Source: a phage. From it: a stretch of DNA of 64,000 nt. Made by a program: the position numbers and the translations under genes. This document shows, piece by piece, positions 5,745 through 33,416 of the stretch. Where the stretch lies: the sequence record PX104380.1; one strand, 5' to 3'. The notes under the pieces are model-generated. The model saw nothing but the letters and a program-made list of their open reading frames with translations, had not been told where the DNA came from and made no database searches. Numbering within the stretch: position 1 is the stretch's first letter; every line of letters starts with the position of its first letter.

Positions 5745-5966
5745 TTAAATTAGTACTATTTGTCGGTGAAAAATTGTCATTCCATCTGCATTAATTGACT
5801 TAACGACTGCAGTAAAGTGTTTTTGTTCTGGGTGAATTAATTTTTGAAATTCTACCTGAAATTTTAGTTGAAGATTTTCTGGTAAATCGAAAAGTGTTTC
5901 TGTTGCAGAAAGATTATATTTTTCTTTAAGAGACGCCATGTATTCTTGTGGAGTTATAGCAGTCAT
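5745..5966 (-). CDS. hypothetical small protein between regA and 43
   Basis: Track ORF 5745-6008; internal ATG at 5964-5966 sits 1 nt after the regA stop, giving 73 aa; no gene recalled here in T4. Confidence 0.35.
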   Translation of the reverse strand: MTAITPQEYMASLKEKYNLSATETLFDLPENLQLKFQVEFQKLIHPEQKHFTAVVKSINADGMTIFHRQIVLI

Positions 5967-5967
5967 A

Positions 5968-6336
5968 TTAATTACCAATCGTATATTTAGGAACGAGTTT
6001 CCATTCATGTTTTTGTTTAAAAGAAATAACTCGGAAGTTATTAGTTAAATCTTTCATAAAAGTTCTTTGACCAGGAACGATTTCAATCAGTCCCCAATCT
6101 TCTAATAGCCATGCAATCGAATCACGACGAACTTCATCTTCTTCTGTCATTTCAACTTGGCGACCATCCATACGAAGCATTTCTTTAAAATGAACGATAT
6201 AATATAGTCCTTTTTTCTGAAGAATATGACAGGACTGATACAGAACTTTATCTTTATTATTAGCAATTCCCATACGAGTCAAAGTTTCTTTTACTTTCAG
6301 AAAATCTTCAGGTTTTTTAAGAGTAATTTCAATCAT
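5968..6336 (-). CDS. regA: RegA translational repressor
   Basis: 122 aa, same length as T4 RegA; between 62 and 43. Confidence 0.85.
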   Translation of the reverse strand: MIEITLKKPEDFLKVKETLTRMGIANNKDKVLYQSCHILQKKGLYYIVHFKEMLRMDGRQVEMTEEDEVRRDSIAWLLEDWGLIEIVPGQRTFMKDLTNNFRVISFKQKHEWKLVPKYTIGN

Positions 6337-7896: not shown

Positions 7897-7910
7897 AGGG
7901 CCGAAGCCCT
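7897..7910 (-). other. UUCG-tetraloop RNA hairpin between genes 45 and 44
   Basis: Plus agggccgaagccct. Confidence 0.5.
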
Positions 7911-7913
7911 CTA

Positions 7914-8600
7914 TTAAAAATCGTGGGTAGAATCAGCTTCAAGAGCTACTACATAATTCGCGTGTTCACCTTCAAATTTAGCAGCACCTTGTTTACCTTT
8001 TGCCCAGAGCAGAAGTTTATAATTTCCTGGTTGCATTTTCATATTTGCCATATTGATAATGAAATTAAATGTATTTTCACCATCATAATCACCAAGAGTC
8101 AAAGAATATTTAACACGTGTCAGAGCAGAATCTTCTACTTTATTAAAACCGTTAATTACGATTTTACCTTCTTTTACCGTGATAGCAATTGTATCAATTT
8201 GCAGACCACGAGATACACGCAACAGTTGTTGAAGGTCTTCAGCTTTAATTTCAGTAACAACAGATGCTACCGGGAATGGAATTGGTTTATTAGGAGCAAC
8301 TACTGTACTCGGATCGGCTGCTGGCCAAAAAATTGTTGAACGGGCATCAGCAATTTTAATATTTCCATCTTCTGACTGGGAAATTTCTGCATCATCATTA
8401 ACTAGAGACAGAATACCGAGAAAACCGTTCAAATCGTAAATTGCTACATCAAAATCAATAGTGTCAGAAATATTTGCTTCCGCATAAGTTGTACCATTAA
8501 CTGCGCGAGTCATAATAAATTGACCGGATTTAAGCATAATACCGGAGTTAATAGTAGCGAAATTTTTCAAAATATTCAGTGTGTCTTTAGATAATTTCAT
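7914..8600 (-). CDS. 45: sliding clamp
   Basis: 228 aa, same length as T4 gp45; synteny. Confidence 0.9.
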   Translation of the reverse strand: MKLSKDTLNILKNFATINSGIMLKSGQFIMTRAVNGTTYAEANISDTIDFDVAIYDLNGFLGILSLVNDDAEISQSEDGNIKIADARSTIFWPAADPSTVVAPNKPIPFPVASVVTEIKAEDLQQLLRVSRGLQIDTIAITVKEGKIVINGFNKVEDSALTRVKYSLTLGDYDGENTFNFIINMANMKMQPGNYKLLLWAKGKQGAAKFEGEHANYVVALEADSTHDF

Positions 8601-9484
8601 TTCAATTTCCTATTTACATAATAGTTAGACCAGGACCGTACAGCACCCTGATAAGATTCGTCGTTAAACCCATTAGCTACTGCAATTTTACGAAATTTAT
8701 TATAACTCGGTTTTCCGTAAGCATGCCATAAAGATTTTAATTCATCTTCATGTTCAATCCAAGTTCCTCTAGCTTTAGATTTTCTAAATTTTGATTTGAA
8801 TTCCGGTGAATTATTTCTAACAGTTGCTTGAATTGAAGCTCTCTGTCTTCTTTCAGCATTATTCCATAACTCTTTTTGAGATTTAGAAATTTTTGATTTT
8901 ACACTTTCTGAATTCATTATATCACTAAACTTTTTAGCATAACTGCAATCAAGATATTTCAATTTCATCTTATTTGAAAGTTTAAGCTTTTTCTCATCGG
9001 TCCAGTGATTCTTCATTGAATTAGATATTTTGTATTTTACGTCAGAACTATGTTTGTAACCTTTACGAATACCAACATAATCGGGCGTAATTTCAGATTG
9101 CGAAAGCTTTACAATTTTTCCAGTTAAAACATTTTTATATGTTCCATATCCTTTAGCGCCAATTAAAGTATTTTCATCTGCGTATGCTTTATTAAAATAT
9201 TTTATATTACTTTTTGCTTTAACTTTTAATTGAAAAAATCTTTCCAATTTTCTTGGATCTAATATAGTTTCAGCTAAAATTTTGACGGTATATTTAGTGG
9301 TTTTAATAAGCTCAAAATATTCATCGCTATAACTCGATGACACGCTTCCAGTATAAATCTTTCCAGCTGAATCAATTATATTTGTTCCATCGAAAATTGC
9401 GTCAATTTTCGAACCTATATAATAACATGGAAAAATATTTTTAGCTTCCCGCTCTGGAAAGCTAATAAGATATACTAAATTCAT
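8597..9484 (-). CDS. free-standing homing-endonuclease-like protein (degenerate GIY-YIG, NUMOD-like C-terminus)
   Basis: 295 aa inserted between 45 and rpbA; N-terminal VYLISF...YYIGSK; C-terminal repeats [10 protein letters not shown] and [11 protein letters not shown]; 4-nt overlaps at both ends. Confidence 0.5.
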
Positions 9485-9870
9485 TTATTAAAATCAGCCA
9501 CAATTGTTTCCGCAACAAGTTGAGCAGCAACAATTAGACGTTCATCTGCATTACCGCAATAATCATCTTCAAGACGTTCACCGCATGAAGTCATAATAAA
9601 TTTAGCGCCAGCATTTAGAGATTCTGTCGTATGTTTACGCATTAGTTCAATCCATTTATCACTCACTTCACGATCGATAGCTTCATAATACGCATGACGA
9701 GCAGGTGCAGATTTAATTTTGTTCTGTATAACTTCCATTGCGTTATCAGAAAGAGACAAAACCCATGCTCGACGAATTTTATTTTGGTTTTGCGGATTTG
9801 ATTCAGAACGCACGTGTTTTGGCTGAATATCTTTTACATCAACAGTATAATTCACAGTAATTTTAGTCAT
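9481..9870 (-). CDS. rpbA: RNA polymerase binding protein RpbA
   Basis: 129 aa, same length and position as T4 rpbA. Confidence 0.7.
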
Positions 9871-9879
9871 AATACACCT

Positions 9880-10068
9880 TTAGTCATAATAATCAGTAAC
9901 AGTCCAAGCTTCATTTCTATTGGACATTATTTTTGTATATTCTGCTTTAAATGCATTCCTAAGCATAGATTCAGTAACTATATGCTCTTCATTGGAAAAA
10001 TTATTTCTCAGAATATATCGTTTTATTTCAGGAAAAGTTAATAAATGCTGTCCAGTTGAATATTCCAT
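9880..10068 (-). CDS. hypothetical small protein (45.2-like)
   Basis: 62 aa; position between rpbA and 46. Confidence 0.5.
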   Translation of the reverse strand: MEYSTGQHLLTFPEIKRYILRNNFSNEEHIVTESMLRNAFKAEYTKIMSNRNEAWTVTDYYD

Positions 10069-10123
10069 GTTTTTCCTCCATAGAGATTATACTCTAATAA
10101 ATTAAAGCATAATCTCTTATAAA

Positions 10124-11806
10124 TTAAACCATTACAGTAAATCGACCAACTTTCTTCATTTGAAGATGCTGACCGTATTCTTGTGGGTCATGGTCTTTAT
10201 GCGAAATTATAAAAACATTAGTGTTTTTCATTGAATTTATAATATTAGCTACACCTTTAATACCTTCGGCATCAAATGACCCATCAAACACTTCATCGAG
10301 TATTAATGTACTAATACTAACACCAGATACAATAGAAGCAATATCACGCCAAGTAAATAAAAGAGCAATATCGATTCGTGCCTTTTCACCTTCACTAAAT
10401 GAAGCATAACTAAAATCTTCGCGACCACGGGATTTAATTGTCTCATTAAATTCTTCATCTAATGTAAACACATAATCCGCTTCCATTATTTTAAGATAAT
10501 GGTTAATCTGCTTATTAAATAATGGAATGTACTTTTTAATAATAGCACCTTTAATACCAGAATCTTTGAGCATATCAGTCAAAATTCCTCGGTGGTATTT
10601 TTCCATTACTAAATTAGTTTTTGTCTTAACAATTTTATCAAGTTCTTCTTGAAGCAGTGCTATTTCATCAGCATGGTCAATAAACTCAGAAGATGCTTTT
10701 TCTATAGCCGCTTTAACTTTTTTAGCTTTATCTACCGTCGTGATTAGAGATTGCTTTTTATTGCGAATATCATTTGCCAACGACTGTTGGGTTTTAATAT
10801 TATCTCGGTATTCATCAACAAGAACTTTTAAATTATCACGATGTGTTGAAAGCTGTTCAAACGAATGCGTGCATTCAGAAACTTTATCTTTAATTTTAGA
10901 AACAACTTTATCACCGGAACTCAATTGTGACAAACAGGTTGGACATAATCCACTTTCGTGATACATATTAATGACTTTATTATACGAGTCAATTTTTGAT
11001 TTAATTAAAACTGCTTCTTGACCGATTTTATTAAATGCATCAGTCGGGTCTTCATCCAAAACAATATTAACTAATCTTTCATTAGCTTCTTCTATTTCCG
11101 ATTTTAGCGTTCTAGCTTCTTTTGCCAAATCATCATACATATTTTGAAGACGAGTAAGGTTGTCACCTGTTAATTTTTTCTGGCGTTCAACGTTATCATT
11201 ATATATTTTAATTTGTTGGATAATACTATCTTTTTTAACATCAAGCACTTGGTTTTGTGAATTTAATTCACGTATTAGTGCTTTATTAAGCTTATCCATT
11301 TCAGCTAATGTTCCTACCTCAAGCAGGTCTTCCACAAGCTTTCTTCGCGCAGGGGTCGACAAACCCATGAAAGGGGTATACCCTGCTGTACCAAGGACAA
11401 CAATCTGCTTGAAACTGGCATATGACATTCCGATAAGCTGTTCAAATTCTGCTTGGAAATCTTTACTGCTGGCAGATTCATTAAGACGTGTACCGTTAAC
11501 GGTGATTTCGAAAACGTTTGGTTTTTGTCCTCTTTTGATATAATACTTTTTCTCATCATATTCCATCCACAGTTCAACTAAAAGTTCTTTCTTATTTGTG
11601 CTGTTTATTAATTGACCTTTCTTTACATCACGAAATGGCTTACCAAAAAGCCCAAATGTGATGGCTTCTAACATAGTAGACTTACCACCGCCATTTCGTC
11701 CAGTAATAAGAGTTTTTTGAACCTTATCTAATTGAATGTCAACTCCATTTTGACCAACTGACATTATATTTTTATATTTTACTCGGTTTAATTTAAAATT
11801 CTTCAC
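10124..11806 (-). CDS. 46: recombination nuclease ATPase subunit (SbcC/Rad50-like)
   Basis: 560 aa; Walker A GRNGGGKST, long coiled coil with CPTC zinc hook, C-terminal LILDEVFD. Confidence 0.9.
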   Translation of the reverse strand: MKNFKLNRVKYKNIMSVGQNGVDIQLDKVQKTLITGRNGGGKSTMLEAITFGLFGKPFRDVKKGQLINSTNKKELLVELWMEYDEKKYYIKRGQKPNVFEITVNGTRLNESASSKDFQAEFEQLIGMSYASFKQIVVLGTAGYTPFMGLSTPARRKLVEDLLEVGTLAEMDKLNKALIRELNSQNQVLDVKKDSIIQQIKIYNDNVERQKKLTGDNLTRLQNMYDDLAKEARTLKSEIEEANERLVNIVLDEDPTDAFNKIGQEAVLIKSKIDSYNKVINMYHESGLCPTCLSQLSSGDKVVSKIKDKVSECTHSFEQLSTHRDNLKVLVDEYRDNIKTQQSLANDIRNKKQSLITTVDKAKKVKAAIEKASSEFIDHADEIALLQEELDKIVKTKTNLVMEKYHRGILTDMLKDSGIKGAIIKKYIPLFNKQINHYLKIMEADYVFTLDEEFNETIKSRGREDFSYASFSEGEKARIDIALLFTWRDIASIVSGVSISTLILDEVFDGSFDAEGIKGVANIINSMKNTNVFIISHKDHDPQEYGQHLQMKKVGRFTVMV

Positions 11807-32434: not shown

Positions 32435-32892
32435 TCAGCCTTATATTCAATAACAGGACATACTTTAGCTTTACGAGCTTTTAAAAATTCAACGATAATC
32501 GATTTCTTGGGTTGAATAGGAGGTAAACCTTTATTTTTCCTATCAATGTTTTCTACGTGTAAAGCATAATCCTTTTTCCATTTATAATCTTTATATTTTT
32601 CACGCAAATGTACAGGAATAACAAATGAACCAATAATAAGTAAAACAACCAAAAGCGCAAGTATAAATGCTGATGGAAGCAAAGTCCATAAACTACCAAA
32701 AATAAGCCAGCGCTGTAAACTTTCTGCACAAATAATTGTCAGCCCTACGAGTATAGCACACCCAAAAATAGAAACGAAAAATGTAGGGATAACAATAGAC
32801 CAAAAGTATGCACATAGCGTCTTAGGTCGTTGCCATTCATCGTTAAACAATTTGAATAATTTATAGTGCCAAGAGTTTTCATTAATAATCAT
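32431..32892 (-). CDS. hypothetical integral membrane protein
   Basis: 153 aa with three predicted transmembrane helices. Confidence 0.5.
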   Translation of the reverse strand: MIINENSWHYKLFKLFNDEWQRPKTLCAYFWSIVIPTFFVSIFGCAILVGLTIICAESLQRWLIFGSLWTLLPSAFILALLVVLLIIGSFVIPVHLREKYKDYKWKKDYALHVENIDRKNKGLPPIQPKKSIIVEFLKARKAKVCPVIEYKAE

Positions 32893-32894
32893 AA

Positions 32895-33416
32895 TTATCC
32901 TTTCATTGAAGGCGTAACGGTTGTTAAATACTTAATCATAGCTTCAGCTTCTGATTTTGATAATGAAATTTCTCCATTGTTTTGACGAATAGAAATAAAA
33001 TCCGGATGACGGTCACCACCAGCTTTTAAAACGCACATATAAGTATCAACTTCGCCTTCAATATTTGAAATGATTGAAGCAGTTCCACATGAATGCGGTT
33101 TTTGATAAATCAATGCAGCTTTTCTTCCGCCATTTGACTGTTCATAAACTTTTAATACATCAAACAAATCACTTCTTTTATCAATAGCTAAAATGTTATT
33201 TTCATCTTCAATGTTAAATCCTTCGGATACTTCATAAAGTGTCACCCATAAATCGCCAATATCAATAACAGCGTTCACTTTTCCATGACTTTCAAGAGCA
33301 TGACAAATTTTCTTGATTTCGTCATAACCCATTTTAATAATATCATCTCCTTGAATAAGAAAGATGTCATTTTTAAATTCAACACGAATTAAACCACTTC
33401 CACTTGAAATAAACAT
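32895..33416 (-). CDS. hypothetical protein (tandem paralog A)
   Basis: 173 aa; C-terminus EAEAMIKYLTTVTPSM resembles the next gene. Confidence 0.5.
   Translation of the reverse strand: MFISSGSGLIRVEFKNDIFLIQGDDIIKMGYDEIKKICHALESHGKVNAVIDIGDLWVTLYEVSEGFNIEDENNILAIDKRSDLFDVLKVYEQSNGGRKAALIYQKPHSCGTASIISNIEGEVDTYMCVLKAGGDRHPDFISIRQNNGEISLSKSEAEAMIKYLTTVTPSMKG

Follow-up and report, generated by a model that had tools for sequence, protein, structure and literature searches.

A SegG-like free-standing homing-endonuclease-type gene between rpbA and gene 45 of a T4-like phage, a probable cassette carrying the promoter and ribosome-binding site of gene 45

The 64,000-nucleotide stretch of phage record PX104380.1 analyzed here (termed the window) comprises, on its minus strand, a cluster of replication genes of the T4-like (Tequatrovirus) type, in which an intact open reading frame (ORF) of 295 codons plus stop with an ATG start, designated as seg, is located between rpbA and the sliding clamp gene 45 (8597..9484, minus strand). 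On the basis of the ORF listing, its match to PHROG 655, its homology to SegG of phage T4 and its ratio of nonsynonymous to synonymous substitution rates (dN/dS), seg is an uncharacterised member of a well-known class, the SegG-like family of free-standing homing endonucleases. It is probably a homing endonuclease gene whose product consists of a divergent GIY-YIG fold, a linker, NUMOD3-like helices and a C-terminal module, and whose DNA acts as a cassette supplying gene 45 with its promoter and ribosome-binding site. I-TevI and the Seg enzymes share this modular domain layout.

An initial annotation had described an 888-bp ORF between rpbA and gene 45 with 4-nt overlaps on both sides, which is confirmed by the ORF listing and by direct reading. 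The seg ATG (9484-9482) and the rpbA TGA (9483-9481) share an ATGA overlap at 9481..9484, and the seg TGA (8599-8597) and the gene 45 ATG (8600-8598) share another at 8597..8600 (both minus strand). The overlap onto gene 45 recurs in the diverged homologues of Mosigvirus phages FL31 and AV115, Gaprivervirus phage VR26 and a metagenomic T4-like contig (L018), while the overlap of the seg start with rpbA takes the form of GTGA in VR26 and TAATG in the contig. The same annotation stated that rpbA lies directly next to gene 45 in T4; the two genes are indeed adjacent there (AF158101.6), but they do not abut, since a 55-bp spacer separates them.

The proposal that the gene is inserted and sporadic was borne out by a megablast search with window positions 7900-10100 as the query against 50,697 phage records. 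It returned 626 related records, 25 of which hold the seg ORF (~21 distinct phages after the removal of RefSeq/GenBank duplicates), whereas the remaining ones (~96%, Tequatrovirus) align in two pieces across the 55-bp rpbA-45 spacer, as in T4. Presence at this position in all relatives had been named as the observation that would tell against a mobile gene, and the comparison of the 45-rpbA junction finds it absent from most of them. The 75-nt right junction is confined to the same 25 records (identical in 17 and with one mismatch in 8). Some carrier records label the gene '(putative) homing endonuclease' (PaulHMueller/Bas45 and the RefSeq record of SHBML-50-1), and most call its product hypothetical. 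Full-length homologues with 51-63% amino-acid identity occupy the same locus in FL31, AV115, VR26 and the metagenomic contig, and the four diverged lineages compared hereafter are Tequatrovirus, Mosigvirus (FL31), Gaprivervirus (VR26) and the contig. A table of T4 homing-endonuclease sites in a 2010 review (PMC2988022) does not include the rpbA/45 slot, and the literature searched yielded no report that names or tests a seg gene there.

The nuclease domain is assigned to about residues 1-105 (9170..9484, minus strand), where the family-conserved residues point to a divergent GIY-YIG-like fold. The protein matches PHROG 655, 'homing endonuclease', over its full length (3e-32) and phrog_7504 at 3.4e-17, and its residues 1-102 share 38.8% identity over 102 amino acids with T4 SegG (tblastn, E 1e-8). 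In a 47-sequence family alignment, P19, Y22, G24, S25, K26, Y44, S47, E81, N98 and A102 are invariant, and Y5, I23 and F97 are nearly so; the window protein retains the entire set of family residues (Y5, P19, Y22-I-G-S-K26, Y44, S47, E81, F97-N98 and A102), each of them being either invariant or conserved to at least 90% in this alignment and in another of 27 sequences. The 'GIY' strand tyrosine and the 'YIG' Tyr-x-Gly are found as V4-Y5-L6 and Y22-I23-G24, conserved family-wide, in a register set by the motif together with the predicted secondary structure. E81 and N98, the counterparts of the catalytic I-TevI residues E75 and N90, are invariant in the 47 sequences and located in helix 77-87 and the loop following it, as in I-TevI.

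The AlphaFold2 model built on the family alignment (mean pLDDT 76.5, above 90 across most of residues 1-100) predicts a strand-strand-helix-strand-helix core, which is the beta-beta-alpha-beta-alpha order of GIY-YIG domains, with a beta-hairpin insertion at residues 27-53. A Foldseek search of this model against BFVD retrieved SegG, Gp32.1 and annotated GIY-YIG or group-I-intron endonucleases, with 29 matches at E<=1e-3. Among 1.84 billion proteins, the profile of the N-terminal domain recovered 763 representatives at E<=1e-3, while the family hidden Markov model (HMM), which scores the window seg ORF at 1.1e-36, detected no other SegG-like family member in the window. The earlier description of a degenerate GIY-YIG-like N-terminus is thereby upheld and fits the whole SegG-type clade, and the assignment to the free-standing Seg type agrees with the SegG-family similarity and the intergenic position, the nuclease function itself being suggested by the sequence.

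Following this domain, Lys/Ser-rich helical repeats extend over about residues 142-233 (8786..9061, minus strand), which are NUMOD3-like and presumed to bind DNA, judging from an internal repeat and the helices of the model. The repeat of residues 142-161 against 188-207 scores 39, compared with a maximum of 36 among 500 shuffles, and a weaker one at residues 158-177 scores 23, near the 95th percentile of the shuffles; residues 147-233 are predicted to contain six consecutive helices. Significant NUMOD3 matches occur in 10 of the 47 relatives, and the motif reaches the Pfam cut-off in five of ten distant family representatives, with a sixth at 18 bits. The NUMOD-like repeats of the initial annotation are thus only partly supported, by an internal repeat above all shuffles and by significant matches in relatives, but the protein's own match to Pfam NUMOD3 (PF07460, residues 142-158) is sub-threshold, scoring 10.4 bits where the cut-off is 20.4 (E 0.65). 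The C-terminal residues 246-295 (8600..8749, minus strand) are the most conserved stretch among the four lineages, and their three modelled helices (246-253, 259-270 and 278-290; pLDDT ~42-64) possibly constitute a helix-turn-helix DNA-binding module.

The relationship of the insert to gene 45 was revealed by a junction alignment of seven occupied Tequatrovirus genomes with two typical empty ones, T4 and slur03. About 49 bp of the 55-bp rpbA-45 spacer are replaced by the cassette, with the same precise junction in all carriers. At the left boundary (9484..9486, minus strand), rpbA has AAA (Lys) as its final codon and TGA as its stop, as opposed to CGT (Arg) and TAA in the empty phages, the gene ending in ..AAT AAA TGA in 7/7 occupied genomes and in ..AAT CGT TAA in the empty ones. 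On the right side, homology resumes at GGAAATT, the Shine-Dalgarno sequence of gene 45. Gene 45 differs at codons 3 and 6 by three synonymous changes (TTA..GAC vs CTG..GAT; 8583..8594, minus strand), which are shared by all seven occupied genomes and are missing from T4 and slur03. A strict linkage of these variants with the insert was tested and not upheld, because the insert-free phages LH2 and RPN226 (L016 and L017), which possess the native spacer with the middle promoter P45, also carry the carrier-type variants (ATGAAATTATCTAAAGAC). The T4-type allele, which differs further at gene 45 codons 7-11, is present in 437 of 500 empty genomes. LH2 and RPN226 could be recombinants or represent target alleles with a natural resistance. 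At distances of more than a few tens of bases, the flanks of the carriers are mosaic and resemble different empty genomes. The carriers diverge from each other in these flanks as much as in the insert, which, like the sporadic occurrence, the precise replacement and the frameshifted or split copies of three records, counts as a signature of mobility.

The replaced spacer includes a mapped promoter of gene 45. In the review table of mapped T4 middle promoters, P45 starts at 32626 and P45.2 at 33257, and the gene 45 ATG of T4 lies at 32603, 23 nt downstream of the P45 start; the insert removes P45, because this promoter lies within the deleted spacer. A scan with the middle-promoter pattern nnTGCTTnn N11-13 TAnnnT recovered both mapped promoters in T4 and slur03, and in the window it found P45.2 together with a new site within the seg ORF, a candidate MotA-dependent middle promoter composed of CATGCTTAC, a 12-nt spacer and TATAAT (8699..8725, minus strand). 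The candidate MotA box begins at -125 from the gene 45 ATG in all four lineages, the element of FL31, VR26 and the contig reading (A/T)(A/T)TGCTTTA N12 TATATT, and this position is kept across lineages whose synonymous sites are saturated. Within the element, the GCT codon is fixed in 4/4 lineages, TTA in 3/4 and TAT in 4/4, while the synonymous sites of the spacer vary. From its sequence and position, the embedded MotA-box/-10 element is the presumed replacement for the deleted P45.

Other matches of the same scan deserve mention. A third one, TATGCTTAA N12 TATTAT, lies at +62 inside gene 45 (8539..8565, minus strand) in the window as well as in T4 and slur03; the mapped T4 middle promoters do not include this match, which may be due to chance, and the false-positive rate of the scan is roughly 1 per 1.6 kb because of this unmapped match. 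The seg copies of VR26 (L003, ~2544) and of FL31 and AV115 (in FL31 at L004, ~2547) contain a second MotA-box/-10 element, T(A/T)TGCTTTA N11 TATAAT, at -341 from gene 45, which is absent in the window copy, where the box reads TGCTAAA. No T4 late promoter (TATAAATA) was found within 26 kb of the locus, and a generic sigma-70 scan was uninformative (15 sites vs 11.9 expected).

The gene 45 Shine-Dalgarno sequence AGGAAA (8606..8611, minus strand) is read directly in the last seg codons (..AAT AGG AAA TTG AAA TGA), where AGG is a rare Arg codon in T4-like phages. The sequence AATAGGAAA at this site is kept in all four lineages and matches the GGAAATT of the empty site; since all four lineages end in AAT AGG AAA nnn AAA TGA, the Shine-Dalgarno sequence of gene 45 is encoded by the last codons of seg. 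By direct reading, no Shine-Dalgarno sequence precedes the seg ATG, and the translation of seg is therefore presumably coupled to that of rpbA.

Moreover, a terminator scan identified a perfect 10-bp hairpin near the 5' end of seg (9465-9441, codons 7-15), which is followed by AAAUAUUUUU (9431..9465 in total, minus strand; folding z = -2.0). Its sequence is identical in 7/7 occupied Tequatrovirus sequences aligned, and VR26 (z -2.55) and the contig have hairpins of other sequence at the equivalent position, which brings the count to 3/4 lineages. The hairpin is predicted to be a terminator-like or translation-modulating RNA structure. Within window positions 9405..9484 (minus strand), its GGGAA could pair either with an upstream UUUCC (codons 9-10) or with a downstream UUUCC (codons 18-19), and the GGGAA of VR26 pairs with the downstream partner, which may mean an alternative-structure switch.

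On the reading of seg as a homing endonuclease cassette, the following course of events can be envisaged. Devoid of its own promoter and ribosome-binding site, seg would depend for its transcription on promoters located upstream, for instance P45.2, and its low-level translation would result from coupling to rpbA termination at the ATGA overlap, and the hairpin with its U-rich tail might further limit expression or read-through. The embedded MotA-box/-10 element and the last-codon Shine-Dalgarno sequence would restore the middle-mode expression of the essential gene 45; because the cassette carries both elements, its retention would be tied to gene 45 expression. In a mixed infection, genomes lacking the insert would be cleaved by the enzyme at the rpbA-45 junction or in its vicinity, and the broken genome, on repair by recombination, would acquire the gene along with short stretches of its flanks. 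The synonymous variants of gene 45 (codons 3 and 6) could be either a short co-conversion tract or a cleavage-resistant (target-site immunity) allele, and the altered rpbA terminus would fall under the same two explanations.

The selection acting on seg was evaluated from intact and broken copies. Five intact Tequatrovirus copies give ten pairs, one of which has no synonymous differences and is hence uninformative; of the other nine, eight show a dN/dS of 0.06-0.15 and one shows 0.30. Between genera, dN/dS is ~0.2, with dS saturated near 1.8. Broken copies are present in the database records of EC121 (+1 T frameshift), ESh24 (split, in an 'UNVERIFIED' record) and AV115 (split by a frameshift), for which sequencing error is possible. 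Occasional broken copies amid purifying selection fit the usual life cycle of homing endonuclease genes.

Several observations weigh against this reading. The Pfam GIY-YIG model (PF01541) is matched neither by the seg protein nor by the 47 family members or 10 distant representatives (57 relatives scanned), no nuclease domain was found in the seg protein by Pfam and NCBIfam scans, and PDB sequence searches with the single sequence (phmmer) and with two family profiles gave chance matches only. An HMM search had been proposed as the way to recognise the nuclease domain; the Pfam GIY-YIG model stayed silent, but the nuclease fold was detected otherwise, through SegG homology, PHROG 655 and Foldseek. 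The hhalign comparison of the family profile with I-TevI 1-92 (sequence confirmed against 1mk0/1ln0) was non-significant, with a probability of 5%, and was not used as evidence; its sole, non-significant match aligned the I-TevI YVGS with K42-I-Y-T-G-S47 and not with Y22-I23-G24. At the column of SegG Arg53, the likely counterpart of the catalytic helix-1 arginine R27 of I-TevI, the window protein has E55, and this column is E, L, L and Y in the four rpbA/45 lineages and variable across the family; catalysis may be altered or lost, because the aligned position lacks the canonical Arg.

The evolutionary and regulatory data contribute further points of this kind. Among the carriers, flank divergence is as great as insert divergence (mean conservation of ~98.3% for the insert vs 98.0% and 97.2% for two downstream flank segments, the upstream-flank mean being distorted by an HNH-gene insertion in phage N2), and there is no sign of a very recent sweep, because the insert is no more conserved than its flanks. 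The divergence of seg between genera (51-63% amino-acid identity) tracks that of the neighbouring genes rpbA, 45 and 44, which would also fit a long vertical residence. In addition, the MotA box of the window (TGCTTAC) is two positions off the consensus, with every base of the motif also under coding constraint, and FL31 has no 5' hairpin.

A domesticated or nuclease-dead descendant of a homing endonuclease, which no longer homes and whose protein is kept for sequence-specific DNA binding and its DNA for the gene 45 promoter and ribosome-binding site, is an unlikely but serious alternative. The missing canonical Arg would be expected of such a protein, as would purifying selection (dN/dS 0.06-0.30) even though divergence tracks the neighbours and the insert is no more conserved than the flanks, and the embedded promoter and Shine-Dalgarno sequence would make its deletion costly. 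Its binding role might be autorepression or the tuning of the embedded gene 45 promoter, as in the case of I-TevI at its own operator; autorepression by T4 intron endonucleases is documented (PMC2988022). However, the putative catalytic Tyr, Tyr, Glu and Asn have stayed invariant or nearly invariant among lineages whose synonymous sites are saturated, and a useful host gene is not expected in only ~4% of the Tequatrovirus records, nor would frameshifted or split copies be expected in otherwise complete phage genome records. The loss of the helix-1 Arg may also be compensated: the rpbA/45 clade has an invariant D-P-R(K/R) motif, whose R78 stands three residues before E81 in the same helix and may substitute for it. 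It is unlikely that this clade as a whole represents either a GIY-YIG-fold enzyme with a rewired active site (helix-1 Arg lost, R78 recruited) or a nuclease-dead regulator of the gene 45 promoter that it carries; if this were true, a selfish element would be structurally locked into sliding-clamp expression in at least four T-even lineages.

It is quite improbable that seg belonged ancestrally to the T-even replication cluster as a non-mobile gene and was deleted in most lineages. The same position and junctions in Tequatrovirus, Mosigvirus, Gaprivervirus and the metagenomic contig, as well as a divergence comparable to that of rpbA and genes 44 and 45, could be accounted for in this manner, but the empty genomes show no deletion scar; they possess a complete spacer with the mapped P45 and a different rpbA terminus, and repeated independent deletions would need to regenerate that spacer each time. 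Furthermore, the family extends to 763 representative clusters, its phage members examined are found at 59/32, 49/nrdD and uvsW-region-like sites, and within one genus the mosaic flanks of the carriers resemble different empty genomes. A chance ORF or annotation artefact in AT-rich spacer DNA, for which the failure of the Pfam and NCBIfam models might be taken, is ruled out for practical purposes by the PHROG match of 3e-32, the confident fold (N-terminal pLDDT >90) and the cross-genus homologues with dN/dS ~0.2.

The gene order of the surrounding minus-strand cluster is 46, 45.2, rpbA, seg, 45, 44 and 62. Gene 46 is located at 10124..11806, 45.2 at 9880..10068, rpbA at 9481..9870 (RpbA, phrog_1285, 3.3e-54) and gene 45 at 7914..8600 (sliding clamp gp45, phrog_223, 1.6e-86), all on the minus strand. 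Other genes vary in this neighbourhood. An 87-aa ORF between regA and gene 43 (5745..6008, minus strand) matches phrog_3826, and its equivalent in the metagenomic contig matches Pfam Phage_RB18_ORF43; the regA-43 gap measures ~301 bp in the window vs 78 bp in T4, and the extra ~223 bp are missing from the five Tequatrovirus carriers compared (G10400, ESh24, EC121, GRNsp7 and N2). An HNH endonuclease gene is inserted on the opposite strand between 45.2 and 46 in N2 (L015, 5224..5940) and FL31 (L004, 581..1297), and a ~285-aa ORF, annotated as a homing endonuclease in N2, lies downstream of gene 46 in EC121, GRNsp7 and N2; the window has neither of these two genes. The 46-45 region resembles a hotspot of mobile nuclease genes.

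With seg, the T-even repertoire gains one more uncharacterised Seg-type endonuclease, at the rpbA/45 site, which leaves the current understanding of homing endonucleases unchanged. The features newly described for the insert at this site are the removal of P45, the -125 MotA element, the gene 45 Shine-Dalgarno sequence in the last codons and the 5' hairpin. Together they provide a clean example of how a cassette may be tolerated, in which the mapped promoter of an essential gene is deleted while a presumed substitute and the gene 45 ribosome-binding site reside inside the cassette's own frame, an arrangement conserved across genera. Meanwhile, the carriers and non-carriers form a natural set suited to crosses, including the BASEL phage PaulHMueller. 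SegG-type genes are often left as 'hypothetical protein' by automated annotation, because their domain is invisible to the Pfam GIY-YIG model.

Among the known systems, T4 SegG (gp32.1, encoded between genes 59 and 32) is listed as an active GIY-YIG homing endonuclease of the free-standing type, with gene 32 as its target (PMC2988022), and its activity, distant cleavage site and marker exclusion are reported as demonstrated by Liu et al. 2003. It shares with the window protein a homologous N-terminal domain with the same family-invariant residues, and each of the two genes lies in the intergenic space immediately preceding an essential replication gene, in the same orientation. The segG ORF contains the gene 32 promoters, and many seg and mob genes are promoter-less cassettes (PMC2988022); the same arrangement, with the promoter of the downstream gene inside the ORF, is published for segG and gene 32 and inferred for gene 45. 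In contrast, the C-terminal halves are unrelated, SegG having 210 aa without NUMOD3-like repeats and the window protein 295 aa; the insertion sites differ (59/32 vs rpbA/45), Arg53 of SegG is replaced by Glu55, and the activity demonstrated for SegG contrasts with a window gene known from sequence alone.

I-TevI, the GIY-YIG endonuclease of the T4 td intron, has no detectable sequence similarity to the window protein. Unlike I-TevI, the latter contains a 27-residue beta-hairpin insertion between the YIG strand and helix 1, which carries the invariant Y44 and S47 in a G-K-x-Y-x-G-S motif, and it has neither a counterpart of R27 at the aligned position nor an evident zinc finger, while its gene is free-standing.

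Terminators at the 5' end of their own ORFs are known from mobE and segF of T4, the termination at the mobE hairpin having been measured at ~30% (PMC2988022). As in these genes, a stable hairpin with a U-rich tract is found at the 5' coding end of seg, and a separate promoter of the downstream essential gene lies beyond it, although mobE encodes an HNH enzyme, the hairpin described here is predicted, its tail AAAUAUUUUU is a poor U-tract and FL31 has no hairpin. By analogy, the embedded promoter and the 5' hairpin of seg match published features of segG, mobE and segF, and the regulatory integration of seg is typical of the family; its active site shows a non-canonical detail.

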